NCBI GenBank assembly: GCA_963792405.1 | Contig: CAWBVU010000006.1 | Location: 410,325 to 474,324, forward strand | DNA from: an uncultured Acidimicrobiia bacterium | Lineage (GTDB): Bacteria; Actinomycetota; Acidimicrobiia; Spongiisociales; UBA5794 | DNA length: 64,000 bases | Reading direction: 5' to 3' | In this document: positions 29,872 through 64,000 of the stretch, piece after piece | How positions within the stretch are numbered: position 1 is the stretch's first letter | Layout of the letters: each line of letters opens with the position of its first letter | Notes under the pieces: generated by a model | The model's database searches: none | What the model saw: only the letters and a program-made list of their open reading frames with translations | Told to the model about the DNA's origin: nothing | Made by a program: the position numbers and the translations under genes

Positions 29872-30573
29872 ATGTCGTTCATCGTCGATGCGCTCTCCGA
29901 CGGCATCCGCTACCTCGCCGAGTTCGGTCCGGACCTCCGTGCGATCGTCGCGTTGACGATCGTCGTGTCCCTCACGGCCACCGTGATCGGGGCGGGTACC
30001 GGCATTCCCGCAGGTATCGCCCTCGCACAGGCACGCTTTCCCGGCCGTGGCCTGGTGATGACGCTGGTGAACGTCGGCATGGGCATCCCACCCGTTCTCG
30101 CCGGTCTGTTCGTGCTCCTGCTGTTGTGGGGGGAGGGTCCGTTCGGATCGTTCGAGCTGATGTTCACGCCGTCGGCGATGATCATCGTCCAGACGCTGCT
30201 CGCCTTCCCCATCGCCGTGGGCGTCACGGTGGCCGCGGTGTCGAACCTCGCGCCCGCCGCGCACGAGCAGCTCCGCGCCCTGCGCGTCGGGCCCGTTCGG
30301 CGGGGGCGGCTGCTCGCAGGTGAGGCCCGCGCCGGTGTGATCGCTGCCGTGGCGGCGTCGTTCGGGCGCGTCGTGTCGGAAGTGGGGGCGGTCCTCATCG
30401 TGGGGGGCAACATCGCCGGGGAGACCAGGGTCCTGACGACGGCGATCGTGCAGGAGAGTCGGCAAGCGAGGTTCGGCGCCGCGATCGCCCTCGGCATCGT
30501 CCTCCTCATGATCTCGTTCGCGGTCAACGGCACCCTCACGTGGCTGCAGGGATGGGGGAGGAGTGATGGCTGA
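29872..30573 (+). CDS. ABC transporter permease, tungstate/molybdate (TupB/ModB-like) type
   Basis: About 230 aa, 5-6 TM helices, binding-protein-dependent permease (EAA-like) loop; first gene of a three-gene operon. Confidence 0.7.
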   Translation: MSFIVDALSDGIRYLAEFGPDLRAIVALTIVVSLTATVIGAGTGIPAGIALAQARFPGRGLVMTLVNVGMGIPPVLAGLFVLLLLWGEGPFGSFELMFTPSAMIIVQTLLAFPIAVGVTVAAVSNLAPAAHEQLRALRVGPVRRGRLLAGEARAGVIAAVAASFGRVVSEVGAVLIVGGNIAGETRVLTTAIVQESRQARFGAAIALGIVLLMISFAVNGTLTWLQGWGRSDG

Positions 30574-47722: not shown

Positions 47723-49393
47723 CTACGCCGCGCCGGTGGGCGAGTAGGCCGAGCCGATTGCCGGACGCTGATCGGGTTCACCCTTGGCTGGCCACATCGA
47801 CATCGCTCGCTCCGACATGGCGGTGATCGTGAGGGAGGGGTTCACGCCGAGGTTGGCCCCGATGGCGGAGCCGTCGACGACGTGGAGGCCCTGGTGGCCG
47901 AAGACCCTGTGGTACGCGTCGATCACGCCGTCGTCCGAGGTCGCGCCGATCGGTGCGCCGCCGAGGATGTGCGCAGTGGTGGGCGTGTCGAAGAGTGCCT
48001 CGTTCACGGCACCCATGGCGATGCCGTCCATCTCTTCCGCGGCGAAGCGGGCGGCGAGATTTGCCGCGGGTATGTAGGTCGGATTCGGCTCGCCGTGGCC
48101 GGGCTCCGTCGTGAGTCGGGTCCGGAGGAATCCCCGCGTGCGGACGAGGCGGATGCTGTTGTCCCTGCTCTGCATCACGAGCAGGATCACGCTGCGCTCG
48201 GACCAATGCCACACGGACAGGGATCGGAGGAAGGTCACGGGATGGCGCACGACCTCGGCGAGGAACCTGAACTGGCGCGGCATGCCCTGCCCGCCGTCGA
48301 CGATGAGGGTCGAGATCAAGCCGAGGGCATTCGAGCCCCGTCCGTACCTCACGGGCTCGATGTGGGTGTCTGCGGTGGGGTGGATCGACGAGGTGATCGC
48401 CACGCCCGTCGAGTAGTCGACATCCCTGCGTCGTGCGACGGCGCCCACGAGCGCCTCGCTGTTCGTGCGGGTCTGGTACCCGAGGCGAGGGGAGAGGCCG
48501 GGGAGTCTTCCCCGTTCGCCGAGCTCGAGGAGCAGCCGTGTGGTCCCCAGCGCGCCGGCAGAGAAGACGACATCGTGCGCGGTGACGCGCATGCGCCTCC
48601 TCGACAGGCCGGGGGGCTTCGCCGTGACGAGCCATCGATCACCGATGCGTTCGAGGTCCACGACTTCGTGCTCCGCCCTGATGTCGGCACCCGCGCGTTC
48701 GGCGAACCAGAGGTAGTTCTTGTCGAGCGTGTTCTTGGCATTGTGGCGGCACCCCACCATGCAGTTCCCGCAGCCGATGCATCCGCTCCTGGCGGGACCC
48801 TCGCCCGCGAAGTACGGGTCATCGACCTCCACGCCCGGCTCCCCGAAGAACACGGCGACCGGCGTCGGTCGGTACGTGTCGGTGACACCCATGCGGCGGG
48901 CGATCGCACGGATCACGCCGTCGGCGGGAGTGTCGTGCGGGTTGTCCGTGACGCCGAGCATCGCGCGGGCGGTTGCGAACCACGGCGCGAGTTCGGACCT
49001 CCAGTCGGTGATGTCGTTCCACTGCGGATCCTCGTAGAACGCGTCGTGTGGTTCGAAGTGGGTGTTGGCATAGACGAGGGATCCCCCTCCGACGCCGCTC
49101 CCGGACAGCACCAACACGTGGCGCAGCAGGGAGAGGCGTTGGATGCCCTTCATACCGAGCCGCGGGAACCACAGCGACTTCCACACGTGCCAGTTCGTGT
49201 GGGGGAAGTCCTCGGCTTCCCATCGCCTGCCCGCCTCGAGGACGCACACCGAGTAGCCCTTCTCCGTGAGGCGATGCGCCGCGACGCTGCCGCCGAAGCC
49301 GGATCCGATGATGAGGACGTCGAAGTGTTCCGGGGTCGCCACGCCGACAGCGTAGACCCGTGGGATGGCCGTCAGATGACGGCGGAACCCCAC
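47723..49393 (-). CDS. GMC family oxidoreductase (cholesterol-oxidase-like)
   Basis: N-terminal FAD-binding DVLIIGSGFGGS, C-terminal GMC signature region; GTG start chosen (VGFRRHLTAIP), no in-frame ATG nearby. Confidence 0.8.
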   Translation of the reverse strand: MGFRRHLTAIPRVYAVGVATPEHFDVLIIGSGFGGSVAAHRLTEKGYSVCVLEAGRRWEAEDFPHTNWHVWKSLWFPRLGMKGIQRLSLLRHVLVLSGSGVGGGSLVYANTHFEPHDAFYEDPQWNDITDWRSELAPWFATARAMLGVTDNPHDTPADGVIRAIARRMGVTDTYRPTPVAVFFGEPGVEVDDPYFAGEGPARSGCIGCGNCMVGCRHNAKNTLDKNYLWFAERAGADIRAEHEVVDLERIGDRWLVTAKPPGLSRRRMRVTAHDVVFSAGALGTTRLLLELGERGRLPGLSPRLGYQTRTNSEALVGAVARRRDVDYSTGVAITSSIHPTADTHIEPVRYGRGSNALGLISTLIVDGGQGMPRQFRFLAEVVRHPVTFLRSLSVWHWSERSVILLVMQSRDNSIRLVRTRGFLRTRLTTEPGHGEPNPTYIPAANLAARFAAEEMDGIAMGAVNEALFDTPTTAHILGGAPIGATSDDGVIDAYHRVFGHQGLHVVDGSAIGANLGVNPSLTITAMSERAMSMWPAKGEPDQRPAIGSAYSPTGAA

Positions 49394-50085
49394 ACGGGCA
49401 CCATGGCCCCGTTGATCACCTTGGACCTCGTGCTCGCGACGAAGTCGATGACCTGGGCGATCTCCTCCGGCTGTGGCCAGTTGACGTAGTCGGCGTAGGG
49501 CAGGGCCGCTCTCGTCGCATTCGTGTTGATCACCGAGGGGAGCAGCGCATTGCAGGTGGTGTTCGTGTCGAGGAGCTCGATCGCGATCGAGCGGGCAAGC
49601 GCGAGCACTCCGGCCTTGGCGACGTTGTAGGCGGCCTGGCCCGCAGGGGCATCGATCGCGTGCTTGGAGCCCATCAGGATGATGCGGCCCCACTCCTGCG
49701 ACATCAGTGGGATCGCCACCCTCGCCGTGTTCCAGGCTGTCCGCAGGTTCAGGTCGAGCATCCGGTCGAGCCTCACGTCATCGGTCTCGACCACGTCCCT
49801 GCCACCCGACCAACCTCCGACGAGTGATGCCATCACATTGATCGGGCCGAAGGCATCCACCGTCTCCCCCATGAAGTCACCCACCGCGGCGGCGTCCGTG
49901 CAGTCGACCCTCCTTAGGATCAGTCGATCCTCCTCGAGGTCGATCTCCTCCTCGAGTGCGGTGGCCTCCTCCGGGAGGAGGTACGTCGCCGCGACCTTGA
50001 AGTCACGGGCGATGAGCATCGGGATGAGGCACCGCCCCACGGAACCGGTGCCGCCGGGGACGATCGCAACGAGGGAAGCAGCCAT
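49372..50085 (-). CDS. SDR family oxidoreductase
   Basis: TGGTGSVG Rossmann motif and YNVAK catalytic motif; its 3' end overlaps the GMC gene start by about 22 nt. Confidence 0.8.
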   Translation of the reverse strand: MAASLVAIVPGGTGSVGRCLIPMLIARDFKVAATYLLPEEATALEEEIDLEEDRLILRRVDCTDAAAVGDFMGETVDAFGPINVMASLVGGWSGGRDVVETDDVRLDRMLDLNLRTAWNTARVAIPLMSQEWGRIILMGSKHAIDAPAGQAAYNVAKAGVLALARSIAIELLDTNTTCNALLPSVINTNATRAALPYADYVNWPQPEEIAQVIDFVASTRSKVINGAMVPVWGSAVI

Positions 50086-50193: not shown

Positions 50194-51417
50194 ATGGCGT
50201 CGATCACGCTTGAGGACATTGGGAAGATCTATCCGGATGGCACCCGTGCGGTGGGCGATGTGAACCTGAACATCGTCGATGGTGAGTTCCTGGTGCTGGT
50301 GGGTCCGTCGGGGTGTGGCAAGTCGACGGTGCTCCGGATGGTCGCCGGTCTCGAGGACATCTCGGAGGGGAAGCTGACGATCGGTGAGAAGATCGTCAAC
50401 GACGTGCCTCCGAAGGACCGCGACATCGCGATGGTGTTCCAGAACTATGCGTTGTATCCGCACATGTCGGTGTACGACAACATGGCGTTCGGGTTGAAGC
50501 TGCGCAAGATGCCGAAGGATGAGATCGATCGGCGCGTGAAGGAGGCTGCGGAGGTGCTCGAGATCACCGAGTACCTGGATCGCAAGCCGAAGGCGTTGTC
50601 GGGTGGTCAGCGGCAGCGTGTGGCGATGGGTCGTGCGATCGTGCGTGAGCCGAAGGCGTTCTTGATGGATGAGCCGCTGTCGAACCTGGATGCGAAGTTG
50701 CGGGTGCAGATGCGTACGGAGTTGGGGCGTCTGCATCAGCGGTTGGGGACGACGACGGTGTATGTGACCCATGATCAGGTGGAGGCGATGACGTTGGGGC
50801 ATCGGGTGGCGGTGATGCGTCCGGTGACGGCGAAGCGTCCGTACAACCTCCAGCAGGTGGCGCCGCCGACGGAGTTGTTCAACAATCCGTCGAACCTGTT
50901 CGTGGCGGGCTTCATCGGGTCGCCTGCGATGAACATGGTGTATGGCGAGTTGACCGAGGAGTCCGAGGGCCGAGTGTTCCTGGCGTTCGCGGGCAGGCGG
51001 TTGCTTGTGGAGAAGGCCGCGCTCGAGGCCCATCCCGGGATCGGGAACTACTACGGGAAGAAGATCGTGGTGGGGATCCGTCCGGGTGCCTTCGAGGATG
51101 CGCGGGTCGCCGGTGATGGTCCCGGGGATCGCACGATCCGGGTCACGACCGACGTCAACGAGCTGTTGGGCTCCGAGTCGTACGTGCACTTCGAGTTGGA
51201 TTCGCCCCCGGTGATCACGCCCGACATCGAGGAGTTGCTGGCGGACTCGGGTGAGGACGCTTCGACGCTTGGGCACCAGACGAAGTTCACGGCACGGGTG
51301 TCCCCCGATGTGCCGGTGCCGGACGGTTCCGAGGTCGACCTCGTCGTGGACACGTCAAAGCTCCACTTCTTCGATCTCGACACGGGCGACAAGGTCGGCT
51401 ACGCCGCCTGGGCCTGA
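50194..51417 (+). CDS. sugar ABC transporter ATP-binding protein (MsiK/MalK/UgpC-like, with C-terminal TOBE regulatory domain)
   Basis: Walker A GPSGCGKST, LSGGQRQR, LMDEP, H-loop; monocistronic as for actinobacterial msiK. Confidence 0.9.
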   Translation: MASITLEDIGKIYPDGTRAVGDVNLNIVDGEFLVLVGPSGCGKSTVLRMVAGLEDISEGKLTIGEKIVNDVPPKDRDIAMVFQNYALYPHMSVYDNMAFGLKLRKMPKDEIDRRVKEAAEVLEITEYLDRKPKALSGGQRQRVAMGRAIVREPKAFLMDEPLSNLDAKLRVQMRTELGRLHQRLGTTTVYVTHDQVEAMTLGHRVAVMRPVTAKRPYNLQQVAPPTELFNNPSNLFVAGFIGSPAMNMVYGELTEESEGRVFLAFAGRRLLVEKAALEAHPGIGNYYGKKIVVGIRPGAFEDARVAGDGPGDRTIRVTTDVNELLGSESYVHFELDSPPVITPDIEELLADSGEDASTLGHQTKFTARVSPDVPVPDGSEVDLVVDTSKLHFFDLDTGDKVGYAAWA

Positions 51418-51453: not shown

Positions 51454-52578
51454 TCAGCGATCCTCGACGGTCTCGGTCACGACGATGCCCGTCTGCGCCA
51501 GCTCAGGGAGCAGATCCGCCCCCGTCACGGCATCGTGCATCGTCAGGACGCCCGGCGCGAGCACCTCGCCACGAAGGATCAGGTCGGCGAGGGCCGTGGC
51601 CGGGAACGCGGTGGTGCGGGCGAGCGCTGAGAATGCGCCATGTGCCCTGTCCTCGATCTCGAGCGTCGTCCTGATGCCTCCCTGGTCCCGCCACACCCGC
51701 ACGAGCACGACGTCGGCATCATCCCGAGGGAGCGAACGGTTCAGGCGGTCGACCAGCACCGCCCTCGGTGCGACCTCGACGCCTGCGATGCGCCTCGGTG
51801 TCTCGTCGAACATGCCCATCTCGAACAGCGCCCTGAACACCTTCCCGTGGCCAGGGTATCGGAGCGTCTTGTACTCGAGGTCACGGACGCGTCCCTCGTG
51901 TCGTATGCACATCGTCGACGTGCCCCCCGCGGTCGAGAACGCCTCGAGGGGACCCCATCCTTCCCATGCCACGTCCTCGAAGCGCGACAAGGGCTCAACC
52001 GTCGCGTGGCGGCCGTGTTGGATCACCTCGCATGGCTCGGCGTACTCGTTGATCAGGCCCTCCGGGCTGAAGACGAGCTGGTAGGCGAGGGCGCCGACCG
52101 GTGACTGTGGCAGGGCACCCACCCGCATCTGGATCGCGTCGATCGGATGGCCCCCCGCCGACGCGATGAGATCCTCGGCGAGCACGTTCGCGAGACCGGG
52201 GGCGAGCCCGCAGTCCGGCACGATCATCACCCCGTTGGCCGCGGCGTCGTCGTGCATGCGTCGCTGTGCCGCCACCACCGTGGGGTTCCCGCCGAAGTCG
52301 AGGTAGTGCGTGCCCGTGGCGAGCGCGGCGGAGGCGACGGCGTATCCGAACCGGTACGGCACGGCGGACACGACGATGTCGTGGCGTGCGACGAGCTCCA
52401 TGAGCTCCCGACCGTATGCCACGTCGATGGTGGCCGCCGTCGCGCCGTAGGCGGTGGCGAGGCGGTGCACGGTCTCGGAGTCGGCGTCGGCGACCGTCAC
52501 CTCGTGGCCCCGTCTTCGGAGGTCCCACACCGCTGCCGACCCGACAATGCCCGCTCCCAGGACAAGTGTTGCCATCGC
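51454..52578 (-). CDS. saccharopine dehydrogenase family oxidoreductase (NADP-binding)
   Basis: N-terminal LVLGAGIVGS Rossmann motif and saccharopine-DH-like C-terminal domain; GGGGGAGG RBS overlapping the upstream gene stop. Confidence 0.8.
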   Translation of the reverse strand, partial: AMATLVLGAGIVGSAAVWDLRRRGHEVTVADADSETVHRLATAYGATAATIDVAYGRELMELVARHDIVVSAVPYRFGYAVASAALATGTHYLDFGGNPTVVAAQRRMHDDAAANGVMIVPDCGLAPGLANVLAEDLIASAGGHPIDAIQMRVGALPQSPVGALAYQLVFSPEGLINEYAEPCEVIQHGRHATVEPLSRFEDVAWEGWGPLEAFSTAGGTSTMCIRHEGRVRDLEYKTLRYPGHGKVFRALFEMGMFDETPRRIAGVEVAPRAVLVDRLNRSLPRDDADVVLVRVWRDQGGIRTTLEIEDRAHGAFSALARTTAFPATALADLILRGEVLAPGVLTMHDAVTGADLLPELAQTGIVVTETVEDR

Positions 52579-52585
52579 CTCCCCC

Positions 52586-53350
52586 TCAGGGATCCAGTCG
52601 CTTGAACGTCTCCGATGCCTCCACGCCCAGGTCGGCGCCGGCAGATCGGTGCCACGATGCGAGGCGCTGGATGAACGCCGTACGCTGCTCGGCGCCCGCA
52701 CCGGCGTCACCCATCGTGGTCACGGTCTGTGACGAGTGCTCGAGGAGCGCCGCGACCTTTCGGTCGAACCACGGCTCCTCGATGGGCTCTGCATGGTCGG
52801 GGGCGTCCGCCGACCACAGCAGCAGGACACCCGGGCGGTGCGCTCGGAGCCCTGAGTCGACGAGTGCCATCGGCTCCCTTGCCGTGACGATGGCGTCGAC
52901 CGTGGCGAAGCCCGTTGCCCGGTGGTCGGGATGCATCTGGTAGCGCTGCCACGGATCGTGCGTGAGCACGACGTCGGGGGTGAACAGGCGGATCTGCCGC
53001 GCGATGTCGTTACGGAGGCCCATCGTCGACTCGAGTTCCCCATCGACGTGTCCGAGATGAACGAACCGCTCGGCTCCGAGGATGGCGCCCGCGGCGGCCT
53101 GTTCCTCGATCCGGCGCCTGGCGAGCTCTGCCGGGTCGGCACCGGGGTCCCAGGAACCCTTCGATCCGTCCGTCACGATGCACATCGTGATCTCCGTCCC
53201 CTCGCCGGCCCATCGTGCAAGCGTCGCACCCGCGCCGAATTCGGCATCGTCGGGATGGGCCCCGACAGTGAGGACGCGCGACGGCGTCGCCAGACGGAGG
53301 GAATGTCCGGCGTCCCTGTCGTGCATGTCCCGGTAGATGTTCGACGTCAT
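52586..53350 (-). CDS. PIG-L (LmbE-like) family deacetylase
   Basis: VGAHPDDAEFG zinc-binding motif and conserved HPDH. Confidence 0.8.
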   Translation of the reverse strand: MTSNIYRDMHDRDAGHSLRLATPSRVLTVGAHPDDAEFGAGATLARWAGEGTEITMCIVTDGSKGSWDPGADPAELARRRIEEQAAAGAILGAERFVHLGHVDGELESTMGLRNDIARQIRLFTPDVVLTHDPWQRYQMHPDHRATGFATVDAIVTAREPMALVDSGLRAHRPGVLLLWSADAPDHAEPIEEPWFDRKVAALLEHSSQTVTTMGDAGAGAEQRTAFIQRLASWHRSAGADLGVEASETFKRLDP

Positions 53351-53919
53351 TCGGCGAGGCTAGGCATGTTCATCGTATGACCGAGGGCCGCCAGCTGCAG
53401 CGACGTGTCGATGTCGATCGAGAGGACGGCCGAGGGGACGACGACGGCGGCCGGTACCGCGGCGAGGTGGCGATGGAACGACCCGGGCCCGTACGAGAAG
53501 GGGAAGTCACCCCTGGAGGCGACGATGGTGGTGCCGCCGTCGAGGGATGGCACGAGCACGGTGTGCCCTGCCTCGACGAGACCGGCGATCCGACGGAGGG
53601 CCGACGCGTCCACCAGCGGCAGGTCGGCATGCGCGACGATCCACGGCCCCCGTGTCCCTGCCGTCGCCGAGGATGCCGCCGAGTTCAGGCCCTGTCCCGG
53701 ATCCTCGAGCACGTCGAGGCCGAGGCCGTCCGCCCAGGTGCGGACCCCGCGGTCGGACGTCACGACCATCACGTCGAGCCCGGCGTCGATCCCCGCGCGG
53801 ATCACGCGGACGGCGAGGTCGCGGATCAGCCGCGTGCGCGCAGCGACGTCCAGGCTGTCGGCAAGCCTCGTCATCCCCTCGAAGTCACGAATGGGCACGA
53901 GGAGCGCCACCGCTCCCAT
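53347..53919 (-). CDS. cofC: 2-phospho-L-lactate guanylyltransferase-like (CofC/FbiD, MobA-like NTP transferase fold)
   Basis: Alignable to the FbiD pattern (LVPIRDF...AKTRL-like, HADLP, LDGGTT, FSYGPGSF); start at MGAVALLVPI inside the longer ORF 53347..54186. Confidence 0.65.
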   Translation of the reverse strand: MGAVALLVPIRDFEGMTRLADSLDVAARTRLIRDLAVRVIRAGIDAGLDVMVVTSDRGVRTWADGLGLDVLEDPGQGLNSAASSATAGTRGPWIVAHADLPLVDASALRRIAGLVEAGHTVLVPSLDGGTTIVASRGDFPFSYGPGSFHRHLAAVPAAVVVPSAVLSIDIDTSLQLAALGHTMNMPSLAE

Positions 53920-54365
53920 CAGGAGCCCGTGTCGGGGAACTCGGCGAGTTGGATCAGGACCCCGTGGGCGGATCGCGGGTGGATGAACGCCTCCTTCCAC
54001 TCCGGATTGCCCTCGTCCATCCCGACGACCTCGAACCCGAGTTCTGTGGCGCGTGCGACGGCGACGCCGAGGTCGGTGACCTTGAACGTGAGGTGGTGCA
54101 GGCCCTCGCCCCTGGTCGCGAGGAACCGGTTGATGAAGTGGTCGGGATCGGGCGAGTCGGTGCGGATCAGCTCGAGGCGCCCCCAATGTGGGAGGTCGTA
54201 CTGCACCCAGTGGAAGTCGGTGCCCGGCTCGTAGCCACCGTCGAATCTCCTGCCCCCGATGAGGGCGATGAGGCCCTCGGCGGCGTCGAATCCGGACACG
54301 GCCATCGAGACGTGGTCGAAGCGCTCCACGACGTCGTTCAATGCGGTGGACGGGTCGTCGTTCAT
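53919..54365 (-). CDS. VOC family protein (glyoxalase / methylmalonyl-CoA-epimerase-like)
   Basis: 148-aa VOC fold (HVSMAV, HHLTFKV, HGVLIQLAE); only the C-terminal part of the long ORF 53919..55109 is credible. Confidence 0.7.
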   Translation of the reverse strand: MNDDPSTALNDVVERFDHVSMAVSGFDAAEGLIALIGGRRFDGGYEPGTDFHWVQYDLPHWGRLELIRTDSPDPDHFINRFLATRGEGLHHLTFKVTDLGVAVARATELGFEVVGMDEGNPEWKEAFIHPRSAHGVLIQLAEFPDTGS

Positions 54366-55174
54366 CCGGGCACGTGGATCCGCCGCTCGTACCACTGGAG
54401 GATCAGTGACAGCGACACCGTGAGGGCCAGGTACATGGCGGCGAGGATCATGTAGCCAGCGAAGAACTGGAAGGTCACGCCAGTCCACAGCTTCGTCATC
54501 TGCGTGAGCTCTCGCACGGCGAGGATCGACACCAGCGAGGAGTCCTTGAGGAGGGCGATGAGGTCGTTGCCGAGGGCTGGCATGACGTTCTTGATCGCCT
54601 GTGGCCAGACGATGAGGCGGAACACCTGTCGACGATGCAGGCCAACGGACATCCCTGCCTCCCGCTGCCCGAGGGGGACGGACTCGATGCCCGCCCTGAA
54701 CACCTCGGCGATGAACGCCGCGTAGATGATGCCGACCGCGACCGTGGTCTTCACCGCGGCTCGGCCGAGGAGGGACTGAGGCGGCACCCCGAGGACATCG
54801 AGGATCTGCGGCCAGATGACCAAACCCACGAAGAAGATCGTGACGAGGACGGGGATGCCGCGGATCAACTCGATGTAGAACATCGCCAGATTGCGGACGA
54901 GGCCGTTCTTGGACATTCGCGCAAGGGCGACGACCAGCCCGAGGACCATGGCGATGACGAACCCGCCGACCGTGACCGTGATCGTCAGGACCAGCCCGTC
55001 CTTGATGAAGAGGAAGCCCTCCTCCCACTTGGGGTCCGTGAGGACCTTGAAGGCGGGAAACGCGATGACGGCGATGATGCCGAGGAACCACCACGGGAAT
55101 CCGGACCATTCGAACGAGAGCCTCGCCCCAGGGGGCGTCGGGTCAAGGGGGGCTTCGGCGTTCAGCGTGGTCAT
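54362..55174 (-). CDS. polar amino acid ABC transporter permease (His/Glu/Gln/Arg/opine family)
   Basis: EAA-like loop and about 6 TM helices; start MTTLNAE with GAGGTG RBS; 4-nt overlap with downstream VOC gene. Confidence 0.85.
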   Translation of the reverse strand: MTTLNAEAPLDPTPPGARLSFEWSGFPWWFLGIIAVIAFPAFKVLTDPKWEEGFLFIKDGLVLTITVTVGGFVIAMVLGLVVALARMSKNGLVRNLAMFYIELIRGIPVLVTIFFVGLVIWPQILDVLGVPPQSLLGRAAVKTTVAVGIIYAAFIAEVFRAGIESVPLGQREAGMSVGLHRRQVFRLIVWPQAIKNVMPALGNDLIALLKDSSLVSILAVRELTQMTKLWTGVTFQFFAGYMILAAMYLALTVSLSLILQWYERRIHVPG

Positions 55175-55272
55175 CGTCACCTCACGATCGATCGAGCTCA
55201 GCGTACCGTCCGGACGCGAAGGGGACCGGGCGAGTACCCGGTCCCCTTCGTACGCAGCGAAGTGCGCTTCGC

Positions 55273-56061
55273 CTACCCGGCGTCGTACTCGACGAACCAC
55301 TTCTTGAAGAGGGCGTCGAGCGACCCGTCGTCCATCATCTCCTCGAGGGTGTCGTTCACCGGGCCGACGAGGTCCGAGCCCTTCGGGTAGATGAACCCGA
55401 GCGGGTCGGACTGGAGGTCGTCCGCGAGCAGCTTCGTCTGGTCAGCATTGACCCCGACATAGCCCTGACCGGCCGTGTCGTCGATGATGACGGCATCCAC
55501 GTCCCCGGCGATGAGTGCCTGGACCGCGAGGCCGAACTGGTCGAAGGCATCGACCCGTCCGGGGTCGACCAACTCGATCGCGAGCTCGTAGTTGGTGGTG
55601 CCTACCTGGGTCCCGAGGCGGTAGTCACCTGCCTGGAACTCCTCGAGGTTCGCGAAGCGGGTCTCGTCCGTTCGTACCATGAGGCGTTGGATGATCGTCA
55701 TGTACGGATCTGAGAAGTCGACGACTTCCTTGCGTTCGTCGGTGATGGAGATGCCATCGGCCGCAGTGTCGTAGATGCCCTGGCCGGTCTCCTCGATCAC
55801 GGCCGGCCATCCGGCCTCGACGAACTCCGCCGTGCAGCCGAGTCGCGAGCAGATCTCGTTCCAGACGTCGTAGTCGAAACCTGCCCCGTTCCCTGCATCG
55901 TCGATGAAGTTGTACGGGGGGTAGGCGTTCTCGACACCGACCTTGATCGTCCGGCCCTCGACGTCTCCACCGCTGTCGCTGCCACATGCCGTGGCGAGGA
56001 CGGCGACCGCAACCGCGAGGACCGCGATGCTCAAGGCTCTCTTCATGCTGGACTTCTTCAT
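55273..56061 (-). CDS. polar amino acid ABC transporter substrate-binding lipoprotein
   Basis: Lipobox LATACGSD; SBP_bac_3-type fold; GGAGGAG RBS. Confidence 0.8.
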
Positions 56062-56201: not shown

Positions 56202-57638
56202 ATGGAACGCAAGACCAAGGTCGTTGCCACACTCGGGCCGGCGTCGGATTCAGAGGAGCGGCTCACCGAGCTCGTCGCCACGGGCATGAACGTGGCGCGC
56301 TTCAACTTCAGCCACGGCACGCACGCCGACCACGAACAACGGTTCGAGATGGTCAGGCGGGTCTCGGATGCCCTCGACAAGCCGGTCGCCCTCATGCAGG
56401 ACATCCAGGGCCCGAAGATCAGGGTGGGGGAGTTCCCGGATGGCGAGATCGTCCTCGAGGCGGGATCGACGGTGGAGCTCCTCCCAGGGTCCGGTATGGG
56501 CGACCGTGGCCACATCCAGATCGCCTACCTCGACGACGTGAAGATGGAGCCCGGGGGCAAGGTACTGCTCGCCGACGGGCTCATCGAACTGCAGGCCGAG
56601 GACGTGGCAGACCATTGCGTCGTGGCGACGGTGGTGGGTGGCGGTGTCCTGTCCGATCACAAGGGCGCAGCCTTCCCCGGCGCGCGGACGACGGTCCCCG
56701 TGGTCACCGACAAGGACAAGGAGGATCTCGAGTTCGGCAGGATGCTCGGATTCGACCTCGTCGCCGCCTCGTTCGTCAGCTCGGGGCGTGACATCCGGTC
56801 CGTCAAGGACGTCGCGGGGGGCGTCCCCATCATCGCCAAGATCGAAACGGCATCGGGCTACATGAACCTCGAGGACATCCTGACGGAGGCCGCCGGTGCG
56901 ATGGTGGCGAGGGGAGACCTCGGCGTGGAGTTGTCGCTCGAGTCCGTCCCGGGGGCCCAGAGGGACATCCTCGCAAGGACGAACGCGGCGGGGAAGATCT
57001 CGATCACCGCGACCGAGATGCTCGAGTCGATGATCTCGTCGCCACGTCCGACGAGGGCCGAGGTCACCGACGTCTACCGTTCCGTCCTCGACGGGACGGA
57101 CGCCGTGATGCTGTCGGCGGAGACCGCTATCGGAAGCTACCCGGTGCGTGCCGTGCGGGCCATGGGCATCATCTGCACGGAAGCTGAGCGAGCCCACGAC
57201 TACGGCCGGGCGTCGAACATCTCGAGCCTCGCCGAGGGAGGAGCGTTCGCGTCGGCGACCGCGGAGGCGTCTGTCGACACGGCGGATCGTCTGGGCCTGT
57301 CGCTGATCGTCGCATTCACGGAATCGGGCACCACCGCACGCCTCCTGTCGAAGTACCGCCCACATGCCGACATCTACGCGTTCACACCGAACGTCGAGAC
57401 CTACCGGCGCATGGCGATCTACGGCGGTGTCCAGCCCGTCCTCATCGATCGGGTCCTGTCCACCGACGACATGATCGCGACCGCGGAGGCGAGGCTGCTC
57501 GAAGCGGGTCTGGTGGAGTACGGGGAGGGCGTGGTGATGGTGGCAGGTGTCCCGCCGAACCAGATGTCATCCACGAACCTCATGAAGCTCCACGTCATCG
57601 GATCGGGTGATGTGCTCCATCCGCTGTCCCGCCCCTGA
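56202..57638 (+). CDS. pyk: pyruvate kinase
   Basis: KVVATLGPAS, ARGDLGVE, ETAIGSYP motifs; 478 aa. Confidence 0.95.
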   Translation: MERKTKVVATLGPASDSEERLTELVATGMNVARFNFSHGTHADHEQRFEMVRRVSDALDKPVALMQDIQGPKIRVGEFPDGEIVLEAGSTVELLPGSGMGDRGHIQIAYLDDVKMEPGGKVLLADGLIELQAEDVADHCVVATVVGGGVLSDHKGAAFPGARTTVPVVTDKDKEDLEFGRMLGFDLVAASFVSSGRDIRSVKDVAGGVPIIAKIETASGYMNLEDILTEAAGAMVARGDLGVELSLESVPGAQRDILARTNAAGKISITATEMLESMISSPRPTRAEVTDVYRSVLDGTDAVMLSAETAIGSYPVRAVRAMGIICTEAERAHDYGRASNISSLAEGGAFASATAEASVDTADRLGLSLIVAFTESGTTARLLSKYRPHADIYAFTPNVETYRRMAIYGGVQPVLIDRVLSTDDMIATAEARLLEAGLVEYGEGVVMVAGVPPNQMSSTNLMKLHVIGSGDVLHPLSRP

Positions 57639-57700: not shown

Positions 57701-58039
57701 ATGGCGGCGCACGGACGGTCGGACGCAGGAGGAGCCGTGGGTCAGCGAATAGCGATCGATCGCACTCGCGAGGTCGGCGACTCGATCATCGTATCGACCA
57801 ACCGGAGCCTCACGGGGACCGATGGTGAGGGATTCGATTCGCCCGCCGCGGCAGCCGACGGCACGACCTTCCCCGCAAAGCTCGCGGTCGAGCTGTTCCA
57901 GGTCGATGACGCGATACGCAGGGTCTTCGTGCACCAGAACGTCGTCGTCGTGACGAGGGACGGTGGATGGACCGACGAGGCACGGAACGCCTCTGGGAAG
58001 GTCATCGAGGAGTTCTTCCTCTTCTACCCGGAAGCCTGA
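57701..58039 (+). CDS. Nfu/NifU N-terminal-domain protein
   Basis: 112 aa resembling the Nfu_N scaffold domain; GGGAGG RBS 6 nt upstream of ATG. Confidence 0.55.
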   Translation: MAAHGRSDAGGAVGQRIAIDRTREVGDSIIVSTNRSLTGTDGEGFDSPAAAADGTTFPAKLAVELFQVDDAIRRVFVHQNVVVVTRDGGWTDEARNASGKVIEEFFLFYPEA

Positions 58040-58085: not shown

Positions 58086-60098
58086 TCACCCGTCGTCCCC
58101 CGTGTCGCCTCCTCCGTCGTAGGCCCCCACAGTGAGCCTGATCGTCGAGCCGGCGGTGACCCACTCCCCGGGGAGCGGATCCTGTGACAGCACCACGCCG
58201 TCCCTGTCGGGATCGTCGACCGCCTCATCGACCCTCGCCGCGAGGAGCCCGAGCTCCTGGAGTTCGAGCAGGGCATCCTCCCAGGTCGACCCCCGAACGG
58301 AGGGCAGTGGCACGGGGCAGTTCACGGGCTCGCCGGTCACCTCGCACGGGTGCACGATGTACCGTTCGGACAGTGGCAGGTACCTCCATGTGAGGGACAG
58401 GTCCTGCTCCTGGCGACCATCCGGATACGTGACGATCCGCGCGACCCTCACGAGGAAGCCGTCGATGCCGCTGCGCTCCTTGACCCGCTCGCCGGGATCG
58501 ACGACGTCCTCCTCGTCAGCGACGAGCTCCTCCTCGAACTCGACGAGGTCCTCCTTCTCCGAGGTCTCCGCCGTGCAGGTCTTCCCACCATTGTCGCCGT
58601 ACATCTTGACGGTGATCGACGTGTCCGTGTAGGCGGTCTTGACGATGACGGGCGCGTCGGTGTCGTTGCGGAAGATCACGTCGGGGTGGGGATACCCGAG
58701 GGTCGCTTCGATCCCGAGCGGATAGCGAGCGAACGACAGCGAGTGCGGGCGATGCTCGATGTCCTCGAGGCAGGCATAGAACACGGTGTTGAACAGGGTC
58801 GTGGCGAACTGGCTGACTCCGCCTCCGATGTTGGCGGGATGGTCGCAGCAGTAGGGCTCGCCATTGATGATCGCAGGTGCAGCGACATACCCCTCTGCCT
58901 CTGTGCGTTGTCCGACGTGCTCGTTGAGTGACCACTCGGCTCCGGGCTGGACGATCGCCCCATCCACGTCGCGGGCGATCTGGTGGATGTTGATGACGCG
59001 ATCCTCACCCGCTGGATGGGTCGTGGTGAACTCCGCGAGCTTCTCGAGCGACGTGTACGACTCTGCTTCCTCGGTGGTGAATGACGGCTCGGCCCCGACG
59101 ATCAGCGGGAACACCCCTGTGCCGTCGCCGAGCGCGGCGGCCTTCATCTCGACGAGGAGGGCCGGAACGTCGAGCAGGGTGCCTGAGCGCGCGGGGATCA
59201 CCCGGATCCGGTCGGTGGCGAGGTCGATGTCGAATCGCGCGTCGACCGGCTGGATCTCGAAGTCGGGACGCCTCGGCTCGAGGATCTCGAGGACGCGGGC
59301 TTCGTCGAACGACACCTCGAGCGCATCGCCCTCGGGCGTGAGGGTCGCGGTCACTGCGTAGGCGAGCTGGTCGGGTGTGAACGAGGTGCGGAACCCGATG
59401 TCATTCGATCGAAGTGTGATGGGGTCGTCGATCATCTCGGCCATCTCCGCCGCGGCCGCGTCGATGTCGTCATCGGTCAGCGTCGGCTGGGCCACCACGA
59501 CGCCGAGATCCACGCCCTGCTTGTCGAGGGTCGACATCTCCTCGACGATCGCGGCATGGGCGCTCGCACGATCGATCTCCTCGCCGGCCTCCGGATACTG
59601 CCTCTCGATGGCGCCGTCCTCGACCCACACGTCGCCCTCGTACGCCGGATTCGTGATGGCCTCGGACTCCCATTGGGTGAGCTGGTCCTCGATGGCGCTC
59701 TCGGAGAAGGTGAGGTGGAGTGGGACCTCCTCGACTTCGGAGAAGGAGGCGATCCATGCGAGGAAGTTCGACACGAAGCCGCCGTCCCTCCGAGCGACCA
59801 TCGCGTCAGCGACGGCCCGCTGCGTGTTCGCCGTGAGGCCGATGGAGGTCGCGGAGAGCTTGAACGTCTCGCCGTTGACGGAGAAGACCCCTGTGCTCTG
59901 TCGGAGCTGCTCCTCGTGTGCCTGGATGGCTCCGACCGCGTCGGTCTCCGTGAGGCCACCGACCGCCACGCCCGCCACCGACACGTTCCGGGCGATCTCG
60001 TCGGAGGAGGTCGCCCGATCGATCCCGTACACCGCAAGGGGCAGGAGCAGGATCCCGAGTGGGACGAGGAGGAAGATGGCTCGGCGTGGGGCTGTCAT
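58086..60098 (-). CDS. VanW-domain protein with N-terminal TM anchor and C-terminal PASTA domain
   Basis: VanW core (NIGGGVSQFATTLFNTVFYAC, HRPHSLSF) ; C-terminal PASTA-like segment and Gly/Asp tail. Confidence 0.75.
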   Translation of the reverse strand: MTAPRRAIFLLVPLGILLLPLAVYGIDRATSSDEIARNVSVAGVAVGGLTETDAVGAIQAHEEQLRQSTGVFSVNGETFKLSATSIGLTANTQRAVADAMVARRDGGFVSNFLAWIASFSEVEEVPLHLTFSESAIEDQLTQWESEAITNPAYEGDVWVEDGAIERQYPEAGEEIDRASAHAAIVEEMSTLDKQGVDLGVVVAQPTLTDDDIDAAAAEMAEMIDDPITLRSNDIGFRTSFTPDQLAYAVTATLTPEGDALEVSFDEARVLEILEPRRPDFEIQPVDARFDIDLATDRIRVIPARSGTLLDVPALLVEMKAAALGDGTGVFPLIVGAEPSFTTEEAESYTSLEKLAEFTTTHPAGEDRVINIHQIARDVDGAIVQPGAEWSLNEHVGQRTEAEGYVAAPAIINGEPYCCDHPANIGGGVSQFATTLFNTVFYACLEDIEHRPHSLSFARYPLGIEATLGYPHPDVIFRNDTDAPVIVKTAYTDTSITVKMYGDNGGKTCTAETSEKEDLVEFEEELVADEEDVVDPGERVKERSGIDGFLVRVARIVTYPDGRQEQDLSLTWRYLPLSERYIVHPCEVTGEPVNCPVPLPSVRGSTWEDALLELQELGLLAARVDEAVDDPDRDGVVLSQDPLPGEWVTAGSTIRLTVGAYDGGGDTGDDG

Positions 60099-60232
60099 GC
60101 GTCTCGATCAGCGGCGGCAGGGTGAGGGCCCGGGAGGGGCGTCCCGCCGGGGAGTGTAGGGGTTGACCCCGACAACCGAGCGAGGCCGCGACGTCGTGGA
60201 ATCGTTGGTAGGGAAGGGTTTCGGGGCGGGCG

Positions 60233-62320
60233 TCAGCCGCCGTCGCCGCCACCGCCGTCGCCGCCATCGCCACCGCCGGTGTACCTGCCCACCGTGAGCG
60301 TGATGGTCGTCCCGGGGTCCTGGAAGCCTGTGGGGCTCGCCGACAGGACGATGCCGTCCTTGGCCGGGTCTTCGGTGTCCTGGAGGACCACGGCGACCGC
60401 GAATCCCGCTTCGGTGATCGCCGCCGAGGCGGTTCCCTGCGGGGTGCCCGACACGGCAGGCACCTGGATCGGGCACACGCCGCTACCGCCGACCCGCTCG
60501 TCACATGGGTGCACCAGGATCACGTTCTTCTCGCCCGAGTACCTCCATGGGAACTGCTCGCGCGTGATCTCGTTCCCGTCACGATCGTAGAAGATCCTGG
60601 TGTTGACGACGGACCAGCCCTTGGAGCCCTTCGACTTGACTCGCTCCTCACCCGGCTTGACGACCCCGTCGGGATCGGCCTGGTACTCGCGCCTCGGATC
60701 GGTCACGTTCGTCCGTTCAGACCGTTCCGTGCCGCAGGTCATGCCGTCCTGGTTGCCGAAGAACGTCACGGTGATCGATCGACGCGTGTACGAGGTGCGG
60801 ATGATCACGGGCGCCTTCGAGTCGTTCGTGAACGCCACGTCGGGGCTCGGATAGCCGAGCGTGGCCTCGCGCCCCTCCGGGTACTTGGAGAAGTAGATAC
60901 TGTGGGGCTGGTGGGTGACGTCCTCGTAGCAGCCGAAGTAGATTGCGTTGAAGATCGTGGTGCCGAACTGGCTCACACCGCCACCGATGTTGACCGTCTC
61001 CTCCTCGCAGGAGAGCTCGCCGGTGACGATCGCGCAGTCGTAGAGGAAGCCCTTGTCGAGGGTCCGCCTGCCCACGTGTTCGTTGACGGAGAACGTCTCG
61101 CCCGGCCAGACGATCGCGTTGTCGACCAGGTCGGCCATCAGGTCGATGTTGTGGGCCCTGTTCACCCCCGGCTTGTACGTCGTGAACTCCGAGACCTCGT
61201 ACAGCTCTCCGTACGCCTCCGCCATCTCGGTGGTGAACGAGGGCGGAGCGTCGAGCACGATGGGCAGCTCGCCACGACCCCCCGCACGAGCAGCGGCCTC
61301 GATCGCTGCCGCGACCTCGCCGGCGTCGATCGTCGTGCCGTTCCTCGCCGGGATCAACCTGATGGTGTCATCGGCGGGGAGGCTTGCGCGATCCTGTTCG
61401 CTGTCGGTGATCTCGTAGTTCTCGTCGACGTCCTCGAAGTCGTCGACGACGATGGTCTCCCAGTAGGCGTCCTGTGGGGGAAGCTCGAGTGACACTCGCT
61501 CCGCCTCGATGAGTGGGAGGAAGACGTCGTGATCGAAGGAGAACACGATCGTCGACGGGTCACCGTGCACGACCTCCGCGTCGAGAGCTTGCGCAATGTC
61601 GGAGGGGTCCACGCTGAGGGTGAATCCGTAGTCGTCCTGGGTCAGGAGCACCGGTGTGCTCATCATGGTCGTGGCCTCTTCCGCCGCAGCATCGAGGTCC
61701 TCGTTCGTGAGCGACGGTGTCGCGATGGCCGTGGGGAGGACGATGACGTCGGTCGCGCCCACACGGAGGGCATCGCCGATCAGCGTGCCTGCGACACCAC
61801 GATCGATCGCCTCGCCGTCCCTCGGGTACTCGACCTCGACATCGCCGTCGACGATGGCGATCGAGCCGTCGAACGCGGGATTGGGGATGGCCTCCTGCTC
61901 CCACTCGACGAGCTTGGCCTCGAGGAGATCAGGGTCGATGGTGGCAGTGATCGAGACGTCGATCGGCTCGGAGAATGCCCGCAGCCAGTCGGTGATCCCG
62001 CCCTTGTGCTGTTCCATCGCAGCGTCGACCGCTCCCTCGGTGTCGAAGGTCAGCCCGACCTCGCGTGGGTCGAGGGTGAACTCGCTGCCGTTCACGGACA
62101 CGGTGGCCGTTGTCGCCGTGAGCTCGGCCGCGTAGCGGTTCACTGCAGCGACGGCATCTGCCCTCGAATACCGTGCGATGTCGACGCCTTCCACCGTCAC
62201 GTTGCGCGCCACCTTGTCCGACGCCGCCGCCGAGTCGATCGCGTAGATCGACAGGGGCATCATCAGGATGATCAGGGGGACGATCGTGAAGAGGATCGCT
62301 CGTGTGCGGGAGGCGGCCAT
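60233..62320 (-). CDS. VanW-domain protein with N-terminal TM anchor and C-terminal PASTA domain (tandem paralog)
   Basis: Same architecture as 58086..60098, alignable throughout (NIGGGVSQFGTTIFNAIYFGC, HQPHSIYF); Gly/Asp-rich C-terminus. Confidence 0.75.
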   Translation of the reverse strand: MAASRTRAILFTIVPLIILMMPLSIYAIDSAAASDKVARNVTVEGVDIARYSRADAVAAVNRYAAELTATTATVSVNGSEFTLDPREVGLTFDTEGAVDAAMEQHKGGITDWLRAFSEPIDVSITATIDPDLLEAKLVEWEQEAIPNPAFDGSIAIVDGDVEVEYPRDGEAIDRGVAGTLIGDALRVGATDVIVLPTAIATPSLTNEDLDAAAEEATTMMSTPVLLTQDDYGFTLSVDPSDIAQALDAEVVHGDPSTIVFSFDHDVFLPLIEAERVSLELPPQDAYWETIVVDDFEDVDENYEITDSEQDRASLPADDTIRLIPARNGTTIDAGEVAAAIEAAARAGGRGELPIVLDAPPSFTTEMAEAYGELYEVSEFTTYKPGVNRAHNIDLMADLVDNAIVWPGETFSVNEHVGRRTLDKGFLYDCAIVTGELSCEEETVNIGGGVSQFGTTIFNAIYFGCYEDVTHQPHSIYFSKYPEGREATLGYPSPDVAFTNDSKAPVIIRTSYTRRSITVTFFGNQDGMTCGTERSERTNVTDPRREYQADPDGVVKPGEERVKSKGSKGWSVVNTRIFYDRDGNEITREQFPWRYSGEKNVILVHPCDERVGGSGVCPIQVPAVSGTPQGTASAAITEAGFAVAVVLQDTEDPAKDGIVLSASPTGFQDPGTTITLTVGRYTGGGDGGDGGGGDGG

Positions 62321-62418: not shown

Positions 62419-63219
62419 ATGGCTCGGACGTACCCTTCGGCGATGCGGCGACTCGACGACCTCCCTGACGGCGACCGTATGTCCGTGTCGGCGACCCTCA
62501 TGCTCACCTACCGCCGCTGTCCTCAACAGGCGCTCGCACGCGTGCTCGGCGTCTACCCCGTGCCGAATCGCGCCACGCTCCGTGGTGCCCTCGCCCATCG
62601 GATCTTCGCACGTCACCTCGCGCACGGACCGATCCCTGACGAGGGGTTCGCGCTGGCCTGCAGGCAGGAGACAGGAGCGAGCCTCAACCAGCAGCTCGCC
62701 GATGTGGGGATCTCGAAGCCGAGTGAATTCGCCGCAATCGTCGCCGAGGTCGCGCGCCTCTACGAGCGGTTCCGGTCGCTCCCTTTCGATGGCCTGGAAG
62801 CCGCTGAACTGCCATTCGAGGACGAGGCAGCGAACGGCGTGGTGCTCAAGGGACGGATCGATGCGGTCTTCAGCGACGAGGGACGCACCAGGATCGTGGA
62901 CTGGAAGACCGGAACGGAGCTCGGCGACGACGCCTCCACGCAGCTCGGCTTCTATGCCTTCGCCTGGCGGCGACGGACGGGTGCGCCGCCCGACACGGTC
63001 GAGGCGATGTCGATCGCGACCGGCGAGAGGGTCGTCGAGCATCCGTCCGCCTCGCGTCTGGACGCGATCGAGGCAGAGCTCGTCGACATGATCGCCGACC
63101 TCAGGGGTGCGTTGGCCTCCGGGGGAGAGCTCGCACGCACCGCAGGTCCGCACTGTCGATGGTGCCCGCTGCTCGACGAGTGCGGTGAGGGTCGTGTGGC
63201 CCTCGACATGCTCGGGTGA
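62419..63219 (+). CDS. PD-(D/E)XK nuclease family protein with Cas4/AddB-type four-Cys (Fe-S) arrangement
   Basis: One N-terminal Cys (YRRCPQQ) plus C-terminal CRWCPLLDEC as in the Cas4/RecB-nuclease iron-sulfur cluster; GRIDAVF...IVDWKTG matches the D..(D/E)xK core. Confidence 0.6.
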   Translation: MARTYPSAMRRLDDLPDGDRMSVSATLMLTYRRCPQQALARVLGVYPVPNRATLRGALAHRIFARHLAHGPIPDEGFALACRQETGASLNQQLADVGISKPSEFAAIVAEVARLYERFRSLPFDGLEAAELPFEDEAANGVVLKGRIDAVFSDEGRTRIVDWKTGTELGDDASTQLGFYAFAWRRRTGAPPDTVEAMSIATGERVVEHPSASRLDAIEAELVDMIADLRGALASGGELARTAGPHCRWCPLLDECGEGRVALDMLG

Positions 63220-63254
63220 CGACCTCGGCGCGTGGGTGCGCGATACTCCCACCC

Positions 63255-64000
63255 GTGACGCCAGGGACCCTCCTCTCGCTCCATGCCCACCCCGACGACG
63301 AATCCTCCAAGGGTGCAGGAACGGTCGCGCGGTATGTGGCGAAGGGGTGGAATGCCATCCTCGTCACGGCAACGGGTGGGGAGGCGGGGGACATCCTGAA
63401 CCCCGCGATGGATCGACCCGAGATCGTGCGTGACCTCGCATCGGTGCGCGAGGCCGAGCTTGCGGAGGCCGCCCGGATCATCGGTTACGGCGAGACGATC
63501 CTGCTGGGATACAGGGACTCCGGCATGCCGGATTCCGAGGACAACGCACGGCCGGACGCGTTCTGCAACCAGGACCACGATGCCGTGCTGGCGAGGCTCG
63601 TCGCCATCGTCCGATCACGGAGGCCCGACATCCTCCTCGGGTATGACGCGCATGAGTTCTACCCCCATCCCGACCACCTCTTCATCCACCGCCTGACCGT
63701 CGATCTGATGGACGCGGCAGCCGATCCCGAGCGGTTCCCCGACGCGGGCGCGCCTTGGCAGATCAAGAAGGTCTACGCCCCTGTGTTCACGATCGAGCGG
63801 ATCCGGGCCCTGCACGAGGCCATGGTCGAGCGCACGGGATCCTCCCCGTATCACGGCTGGATGGAGCGTCTCGACCGCGACGCAGACGATCGCCACATCA
63901 CCAGGGTGGACGTGACGGGCCATGTCGAGCAGGGAAGGGATGCGCTCCGCGCCCACCGGACCCAGGTCGACCCTGACGGCTTCTGGTTCATGGTGCCGAC
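63255..64000 (+). CDS. mca: mycothiol S-conjugate amidase (partial, runs off window end)
   Basis: HAHPDDESSKGAGTVARY...LVTATGGEAGDILNPAMD...YPHPDH agrees closely with Mca; GTG start; this frame is not in the ORF track because it has no stop in the window. Confidence 0.8.
   Translation, partial: MTPGTLLSLHAHPDDESSKGAGTVARYVAKGWNAILVTATGGEAGDILNPAMDRPEIVRDLASVREAELAEAARIIGYGETILLGYRDSGMPDSEDNARPDAFCNQDHDAVLARLVAIVRSRRPDILLGYDAHEFYPHPDHLFIHRLTVDLMDAAADPERFPDAGAPWQIKKVYAPVFTIERIRALHEAMVERTGSSPYHGWMERLDRDADDRHITRVDVTGHVEQGRDALRAHRTQVDPDGFWFMVP

Follow-up and report, generated by a model that had tools for sequence, protein, structure and literature searches.

A lone, predicted fbiD/cofC gene of an uncultured Acidimicrobiia bacterium in a gene string of probably mixed function with an ATPase-less amino-acid transporter, inside a class-conserved gene-order block

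In actinobacteria, fbiD, the counterpart of the archaeal cofC gene of F420 biosynthesis, normally lies apart from the other fbi genes, as on the map of Mycobacterium tuberculosis H37Rv. Scattered fbi genes being the expected actinobacterial arrangement, a lone cofC is the norm and not an anomaly. M. tuberculosis fbiD (Rv2983) itself was a late discovery and turned out to be a gene on its own (10.1101/2020.09.10.292508). Here, we describe a cofC-like gene in a string of six co-directional minus-strand genes, which occupies positions 51454-56061 of a 64,000-nt stretch of contig CAWBVU010000006.1 from an uncultured Acidimicrobiia bacterium (assembly GCA_963792405.1; the whole stretch, with a G+C content of ~68%, is referred to as the window). 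In their order on the minus strand, the genes encode a substrate-binding protein (SBP), a permease, a VOC protein, the CofC-like protein, a PIG-L family protein and a saccharopine-dehydrogenase-like protein (SDH). A first-pass annotation of this DNA read them as a novel pathway for a nucleotide-activated or N-acetylated metabolite, which our results do not support, as the CofC-like protein is predicted to be FbiD and the composition of the string varies among relatives. It is fairly probable that the string is co-transcribed and of mixed function, contains an ordinary fbiD and lies inside a gene-order block conserved in the class, rather than being a dedicated pathway.

By its fold and its active site, as judged from the sequence and a predicted structure, the CofC-like protein is a member of the FbiD/CofC family. 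It reaches a PF01983 score of 63.0 (cut-off 22), and its AlphaFold2 model, built on 23 homologues, has a pLDDT of 93.4. When this model was searched with Foldseek, ranks 1-8 were all CofC/FbiD structures (E 5e-14 to 2e-12), while the next nucleotidyltransferase family followed five orders of magnitude behind, at 1e-9 or weaker. The fold is the same as in M. tuberculosis FbiD and archaeal CofC at TM-scores of 0.81-0.85, with 0.84 for M. tuberculosis FbiD (6BWG/6BWH), 0.85 for a CofC activating 3-phosphoglycerate (3-PG; 7P97) and 0.81 for M. mazei CofC (2I5E). In FbiD, eight residues contact phosphoenolpyruvate (PEP) and Mg, namely K17, L92, D116, T148, G163, S166, D188 and D190 (PMC6450877, PMC8764529), of which D116, D188 and D190 form the three-aspartate Mg2+ motif (PMC6450877), and K17, L92, T148, G163 and S166 are the contacts to PEP or 2-phospho-L-lactate (2-PL) (PMC8764529). 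They correspond, in this order, to R11, L78, D99, T130, G144, S147, D169 and D171 of the CofC-like protein, so that seven of the eight are identical and the remaining exchange, of K17 for R11, is conservative. The three-aspartate site (D99, D169, D171) is intact, the S/G/T/L carboxylate contacts are those of M. tuberculosis FbiD, and the glycine at position 163 (G144) is the marker of the PEP/2-PL type, as opposed to the serine of the 3-PG type. Furthermore, loss-of-function, resistance-conferring mutations map to R25 of M. tuberculosis FbiD (10.1101/2020.09.10.292508), and its counterpart R18, the essential arginine of the T-R-L motif, is invariant among the relatives. We predict that the protein is the PEP or 2-PL guanylyltransferase of F420 biosynthesis.

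The surroundings of cofC were compared in 84 loci, all from metagenome-assembled genomes of Acidimicrobiia, collected as homologues on long contigs and in a scan of one genome per species. Searches for homologues of cofD, fbiC and fno with S. meliloti pSymA queries gave no match in the window, and none up to 10 kb from cofC in any of these loci; of the partner genes fbiA/cofD, fbiB/cofE and fbiC, none was present in these regions. The "orphan" position of cofC, which the first-pass annotation considered odd, is in this respect the same as that of mycobacterial fbiD, a stand-alone gene apart from other F420 genes. A tie between cofC and F420 is indicated by genes for luciferase-like (LLM) oxidoreductases, since 17 of 44 loci have such a homologue at most 3.5 kb from cofC. 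Three LLM representatives were scored, and all exceeded the cut-offs of F420-dependent models, two with TIGR03560 (271.7 and 283.0 vs 231.4) and one with TIGR03619 (214.7 vs 166.9). In other subclades, clustering of unassigned neighbours identified the luciferase-like oxidoreductase as the commonest gene directly beside cofC. The LLM genes near cofC belong to two subfamilies, and their placement takes at least three forms (upstream and divergent, upstream and co-directional, or downstream behind a short-chain dehydrogenase/reductase (SDR) gene); they also adjoin variant forms of cofC with R-Y and, in one case, R-M in place of the lysines K17 and K23. An F420 pathway has been reported in other Acidimicrobiia with even smaller genomes (PMC7771536).

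On a larger scale, the gene set at 1921-41702 of the window is also present in the Rv2983-Rv3025 region of M. tuberculosis. It includes a fusion of a MutT1-like NUDIX domain with a histidine phosphatase, iscS-mnmA-ligA, gatA-gatB, serA and ilvE, as well as an Rv2993c-like FAA hydrolase and gltX followed by tRNA-Gln and tRNA-Glu. This shared gene content fits a deep actinobacterial synteny around fbiD.

As regards the string itself, all six translations are exact matches to proteins already called in an NCBI/ENA record, a contig of 2,091,661 bp, so that the gene boundaries are not a choice of this analysis, and Pfam searches agree with the domains assigned to the six genes in the first-pass annotation. 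Its description of six packed minus-strand genes without an ATPase is likewise confirmed by the gene calls and by the junctions as read from the sequence, where the permease and VOC genes overlap by 4 nt (ATGA), VOC and cofC by 1 nt (TGATG), and cofC and PIG-L by 4 nt (ATGA). At the PIG-L/SDH junction, TGAGGGGGAGGCGATG, a 10-nt gap separates the genes, and the Shine-Dalgarno sequence lies on the PIG-L stop codon, as had been described. The SBP and permease genes, on the other hand, do not overlap and are separated by a 98-nt spacer, which had not been recorded before. Overlapping junctions support co-transcription of the string and not a shared pathway; tight junctions are frequent in the window and also occur between unrelated genes, which overlap or abut in the same way (FAA-hydrolase/GltX -4, MnmA/LigA +1, hydrolase/IscS 0). 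Unlike M. tuberculosis fbiD, the window cofC is probably co-transcribed with genes for a PIG-L deacetylase and a protein resembling L-lysine 6-dehydrogenase (LysDH). Upstream of the string, the pyruvate kinase gene pyk diverges from the SBP gene, and a 140-nt upstream region is common to both. Scans of the G+C-rich operon region for consensus promoters and terminators gave no calls, and no known RNA, such as a riboswitch, was recognized by Rfam either within the operon or in front of it.

Mapping of the window proteins by homology onto all six-frame open reading frames (ORFs) of the relatives' loci revealed a block that recurs throughout the class and is common to 80 Acidimicrobiia loci. It consists of VanW-VanW-small ORF-pyk on one strand, a variable slot, cofC-PIG-L-(SDH), a convergent gene for a MalK-type ATPase, and SDR-GMC oxidoreductase-Na/H antiporter. 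If retention is expressed as the number of loci with an orthologue among those evaluable for the given neighbour, the SDR gene is kept next to cofC in 36/45 loci (80%), PIG-L in 39/55 (71%), pyk, upstream of cofC, in 31/49 (63%), MalK in 27/55 (49%), SDH in 24/55 (44%), VOC, directly upstream of cofC, in 11/49 (22%), and SBP and permease in 8/49 (16%) each. The complete six-gene arrangement was found in nine of the 44 loci with both flanks present, all nine belonging to the window's own subclade, and the string as a whole does not stay together among the relatives. The SBP-permease pair is limited to one subclade, and what occupies the hotspot slot beside cofC varies (L027, L035, L038, L042, L051, L053, L058, L064, L066, L069, L070, L072 and others), with F420-dependent LLM genes, a complete polar-amino-acid transporter (PAAT) with its ATPase, or nothing in it. 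In the first-pass annotation, loss of the linkage in relatives had been named as one half of what would speak against a common pathway. The linkage turned out to be conserved, but no more so than for neighbours of plainly unrelated function. The SDR and pyk genes are kept about as often as the genes of the string.

Some of the flanking genes of the block deserve a brief description. The window orthologue of SDR, the most persistent neighbour of cofC, is FabG-like (49372-50085, minus strand), and beside it lies the gene for the GMC oxidoreductase (47723-49400, minus strand), which is cholesterol-oxidase-like at 588 bits against a cut-off of 850. On the other side, two tandem VanW + PG_binding_4 + PASTA paralogues are present at 58086-62320 (minus strand), and a small conserved ORF without a Pfam or NCBIfam match (57701-58039, plus strand) is situated between them and pyk. 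This VanW-VanW-small ORF trio is conserved beside pyk across the class.

Several observations weigh against the view that the string is of mixed function and its fbiD ordinary. The CofC-like protein scores 102.5 with the equivalog model TIGR03552 and so remains 2.5 bits short of its cut-off of 105; it has ~25% sequence identity to M. tuberculosis FbiD and differs from it by K17R and K23M, the latter (M16) being an exchange of the lysine of the K-T/S-R-L motif, which is lost in the window's subclade. Genes for F420-dependent enzymes are absent from the window and almost absent from the loci of the closest subclade. Furthermore, in 71% of the loci, at CofC identities of 36-57%, PIG-L adjoins cofC and probably shares a transcript with it, and this retention is above that of many unrelated pairs, so that a functional link between the two may exist. 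The SDH gene, finally, is almost never found without PIG-L (1 of 24 loci, PIG-L being present in the other 23), which suggests a real PIG-L/SDH pairing. As for the altered lysines, K23 is kept in 44 of 81 related loci, 37 of them with K-K, while the others combine R at position 17 with M, L, Y or F at position 23. The two residues co-vary in the FbiD proteins of Acidimicrobiia, as there are few R-K intermediates and K17 never occurs without K23 in the 81 loci. Judged from these sequences, such covariation suggests compensation and not decay, with Arg17 compensating for the lost motif lysine.

The PIG-L protein of the operon matches PF02585 with 106.2 (cut-off 28.2) and has intact metal motifs, AHPDDAEFG and HPDHRATG. 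Among solved structures, it is closest to archaeal diacetylchitobiose deacetylases (Dac; PDB 8BGN, E 7e-28) and to LnmX. With the Dac/PIG-L deacetylases of Thermococcales it has in common the PIG-L fold and the AHPDD and HPDH motifs, Dac being the best solved relative at the same E value, but it differs from Dac in that no chitin-utilisation genes are located near it. It also differs from BshB1, BshB2, MshB and Mca, as it fails the BshB2 model and the curated cut-offs of BshB1 (TIGR04001, 85.2 vs 182.5), Mca (TIGR03446, 49.9 vs 277) and MshB (TIGR03445, 38.5 vs 224). A second gene of the PIG-L family, ~7 kb from the operon, scores 260 with TIGR03446 in its incomplete window copy, and its full-length orthologue in locus L013 scores 299.8 against the cut-off of 277; by these scores it is an Mca orthologue. 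This orthologue makes it probable that the organism relies on mycothiol, without the operon PIG-L being involved, for which identity with MshB or Mca was rejected because of the curated cut-offs and the true Mca nearby. The first-pass annotation had offered, as an alternative, an unusual placement of F420 and mycothiol-related steps. Its F420 part agrees with the FbiD fold and active site, while its mycothiol part does not hold for the operon PIG-L.

The best PDB match of the SDH protein was 3ABI (E 1.6e-30), ahead of saccharopine dehydrogenases and reductases at 1e-11 to 3e-17. This structure is the L-lysine 6-dehydrogenase of P. horikoshii (PMC10413350), and close homologues of the window protein are named 'lysine 6-dehydrogenase' by JGI as well. 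Alignment with P. horikoshii LysDH (PH1688) is end-to-end, and the two proteins have similar lengths and the same two saccharopine-dehydrogenase domains, but the identity of the window SDH is low and its genomic context unrelated. No NCBIfam model reaches its cut-off, and the protein is best described as an oxidoreductase of the saccharopine-dehydrogenase family, with L-lysine 6-dehydrogenase as its closest solved relative. It has a GAGIVG motif and, to judge from the Asp that follows strand beta-2 (TVADAD), its cofactor is more likely to be NAD than NADP. No distant genomic contexts were found for SDH or PIG-L, as the best 120 homologues were all close Acidimicrobiia orthologues with 58-100% identity. 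The VOC protein failed TIGR03081 (48.6 vs 114.95), and its best PDB match, methylmalonyl-CoA epimerase, was weak (E 1e-7). It is best described as a putative glyoxalase-fold protein distantly like that epimerase.

The first two genes of the string encode parts of an ABC importer. The SBP has an N-terminal signal peptide and a lipobox-like cysteine, and GGAGGAG is located 7 nt upstream of its ATG. Its best NCBIfam matches are the Lys/Arg/Orn, cystine and Gln binders, all below cut-offs, and its best PDB sequence matches are the ancestral Arg/Lys binders AncCDT-1 and AncQR, ArtJ and the Thermotoga Arg-binding protein; it is the family-3 lipoprotein of a PAAT importer, probably one for basic amino acids. 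The permease, preceded by GTGAGGTGA upstream of its ATG, carries a TIGR01726 HEQRo domain (55.6 vs 42.2) and is EhuD-/GlnP-like; as the single PAAT permease, it would act as a homodimer. This family-3 SBP lipoprotein with a single HEQRo-type permease resembles E. coli GlnHPQ and the Geobacillus ArtJ system. Unlike in those polar-amino-acid importers, no GlnQ/ArtP-type ATPase gene is present in the operon or in the 64-kb window, and this state is conserved in at least nine related genomes. No GlnQ/HisP-type ATPase was found in the string or the window, nor an orthologue of the GlnQ-type ATPases from relatives that were used as queries, and the only ABC ATPases of the window are an ABC-2-type (7372-8298), a ModC/CysA-type (30512-31555) and a MalK-type one (50194-51417). 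That the pair is intact, at 64-78% identity, across at least nine species-level genomes indicates selection for it, and its ATPase is presumably one that is supplied by a gene at another place in the genome.

Five relatives (L003, L040, L043, L045 and L057) carry an SBP-permease-GlnQ-type-ATPase set in or near the slot. Their SBP and permease are 29-36% identical to the window pair, while pyk, SDH and PIG-L of the same loci are 53-64% identical to those of the window. From these identities, the set is a different transporter and the transporter module is separable, and the idea that the VOC gene replaced a transporter ATPase gene was rejected on the same grounds. The MalK/UgpC-type (MsiK-like) ATPase, not mentioned in the first-pass annotation, is encoded by an orphan gene that converges on SDH at a distance of 36 nt and scores 456.6 with NF008653 (cut-off 432). 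Like Streptomyces MsiK, it lacks an adjacent permease or SBP gene that would belong to it; its position is kept in about half of the relatives. It is an ATPase of the sugar (CUT1) class, and whether a relative has it does not depend on the SBP-permease pair, as it occurs with or without the pair and is missing from L012 and L018, which have the pair. For these reasons, it is unlikely to power the SBP and permease of the string.

Following the SBP gene, the 98-nt spacer folds at -50.1 kcal/mol and contains a perfect 13-bp G+C-rich hairpin, GAAGGGGACCGGG tactcg CCCGGTCCCCTTC, without a U-tract. The hairpin had no Rfam match and was not called by a T-run terminator scan. One of like shape and position was present after the SBP gene in 13/13 relatives examined, with compensatory changes in the stem. 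Many binding-protein operons have a hairpin at this place, and such features are characteristic of elements by which more binding protein than permease is made. It is probably a partial terminator/read-through attenuator or a stabiliser of the mRNA 3′-end, raising SBP output over that of the downstream genes.

According to the model that we favour, in which an ordinary fbiD is part of a mixed-function string, transcription would most likely start in the region common to the divergent pyk, and the hairpin would allow the binding protein to be made in excess. The permease, VOC, cofC, PIG-L and SDH genes would then be translated from the overlapping or abutting start and stop sites seen in the sequence. 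The SBP and permease, of the basic-amino-acid type, would have been inserted in one subclade into the variable slot upstream of cofC and would use a GlnQ-type ATPase encoded elsewhere. FbiD/CofC would guanylylate PEP (or 2-PL) for FbiA in ordinary F420 biosynthesis. PIG-L and SDH would be dispensable companions of cofC, probably acting in sequence, with PIG-L freeing an amine that the LysDH-like enzyme then oxidises, and the VOC protein would be a separate module of the string.

It could also be argued that the string is a unit for uptake and catabolism of basic amino acids in which cofC is a passenger, so that, in the window's subclade, lysine or an N-acetylated basic amino acid would be taken up through the SBP and permease, PIG-L would remove the acetyl group, and the LysDH-like enzyme would oxidise the epsilon-amine to a semialdehyde. 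The proximity of the SBP to Arg/Lys binders and to the Lys/Arg/Orn model, that of SDH to 3ABI with the concurring JGI names, the occurrence of SDH with PIG-L in 23 of 24 loci, and the common direction and close spacing or overlap of the genes would all agree with such a unit. We nevertheless find it rather unlikely, as PIG-L and SDH predate the insertion of the SBP-permease pair and occur without it in L003, L013, L021, L037, L047 and L050, no aldehyde dehydrogenase or gene for processing piperideine-6-carboxylate is located nearby, and SDH has low identity to LysDH and passes no curated model. In addition, those relatives of PIG-L with known substrates among the matches presumably deacetylate N-acetylglucosamine (GlcNAc) moieties and not N-acetyl-lysine. 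The original proposal, on the other hand, was that the CofC-like protein, PIG-L and SDH, possibly together with VOC, constitute a pathway of their own outside F420. In that case, the CofC orthologue would have taken a new function in the K17R/K23M subclade. In its favour are the class-wide cofC-PIG-L linkage, with overlapping or abutting junctions in L001-L004, where gene calls exist, the change of K23 to M or L in exactly the subclade that carries SBP-permease-VOC, the TIGR03552 cut-off just missed, and the lack of an F420 gene in the window. However, the FbiD ligand contacts, including those to the PEP/2-PL carboxylate (S147, G144, T130), are kept, seven of eight being identical with K17R as the exception, and synteny shows the window gene to be an orthologue of the canonical K-K form and not a paralogue. 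The R-Y variants and one R-M variant also adjoin F420-dependent LLM genes, PIG-L and SDH are each absent from many loci that keep cofC, and no fusion proteins were found among the 120 CofC homologues listed, all of which makes this pathway very unlikely.

Finally, PIG-L and SDH could serve F420 itself within an extended F420 operon, by trimming, modifying or salvaging the gamma-glutamyl tail or by supplying a side-chain precursor. PIG-L is found directly downstream of cofC more often than any other gene (39/55), its family includes amidases such as Mca, enzymes of the saccharopine-dehydrogenase family handle glutamate adducts, and F420-dependent LLM genes occur in the same neighbourhood. On the other hand, LLM and SDH genes are nearly exclusive (SDH in two of 17 LLM loci), cofC lacks PIG-L in 16/55 loci, no known F420 step requires a deacetylase or an amine dehydrogenase (PMC8498797), and the proposal is without biochemical precedent, so that we regard it as extremely improbable. 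What is left for novelty, either that FbiD acquired a new function in the K17R/K23M subclade or that PIG-L and SDH have a role related to F420, has a slim chance of being true. With equally little probability, a K17R/K23M FbiD fixed in an operon with SBP-permease, VOC, PIG-L and the LysDH-like enzyme could make or modify something new, be it a guanylylated amine-bearing small molecule unrelated to F420 or a form of F420 whose side chain is altered.

For the reading of small high-G+C actinobacterial genomes, these results mean that 4-nt overlaps and conserved adjacency alone do not signal a shared pathway, since unrelated neighbours are kept as often as the supposed pathway genes, and that a lone cofC is a normal state in actinobacterial F420 biosynthesis. 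Specialists may find interest in the class-wide pairing of cofC and PIG-L, the FbiD lineage in which K17 and K23 are exchanged for arginine and a hydrophobic residue, and a polar-amino-acid importer long maintained without its own ATPase gene. The improbable novel function, if true, would suggest that marine and hydrothermal Acidimicrobiia contain a new derivative of F420, or else a guanylylated metabolite that is new. The features of the locus are listed in Table 1.

Table 1. Positions of the genes of the string, of the spacer hairpin and of context genes in the window, with supporting matches.
Feature	Position	Strand	Support	Length
SBP	55273-56061	-	PF00497 130.9 bits	
Permease	54362-55174	-	PF00528 79 bits	270 aa
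VOC	53919-54365	-	PF13669 37 bits + PF13468	148 aa
cofC/fbiD	53347-53919	-	PF01983	190 aa
PIG-L	52586-53350	-	PF02585	254 aa
Saccharopine-dehydrogenase-like (SDH)	51454-52575	-	PF03435 + PF16653	373 aa
Hairpin in SBP-permease spacer	55218-55249	-	sequence	
Orphan MalK/UgpC-type ATPase (context)	50194-51417	+	NF008653, PF00005, OB_MalK	
Pyruvate kinase pyk (context)	56202-57638	+	ORF + translation; PF00224, PF02887 in L001-L003 orthologues	
Mca orthologue (context)	63216-64000, runs off window end	+	PF02585, TIGR03446	

Elsewhere in the window, coding-like composition was also seen in ORFs that have no Pfam match, at 21930-23069 (plus strand), 23096-23872 (minus strand), 3147-3875 (plus strand) and 16102-16539 (minus strand).

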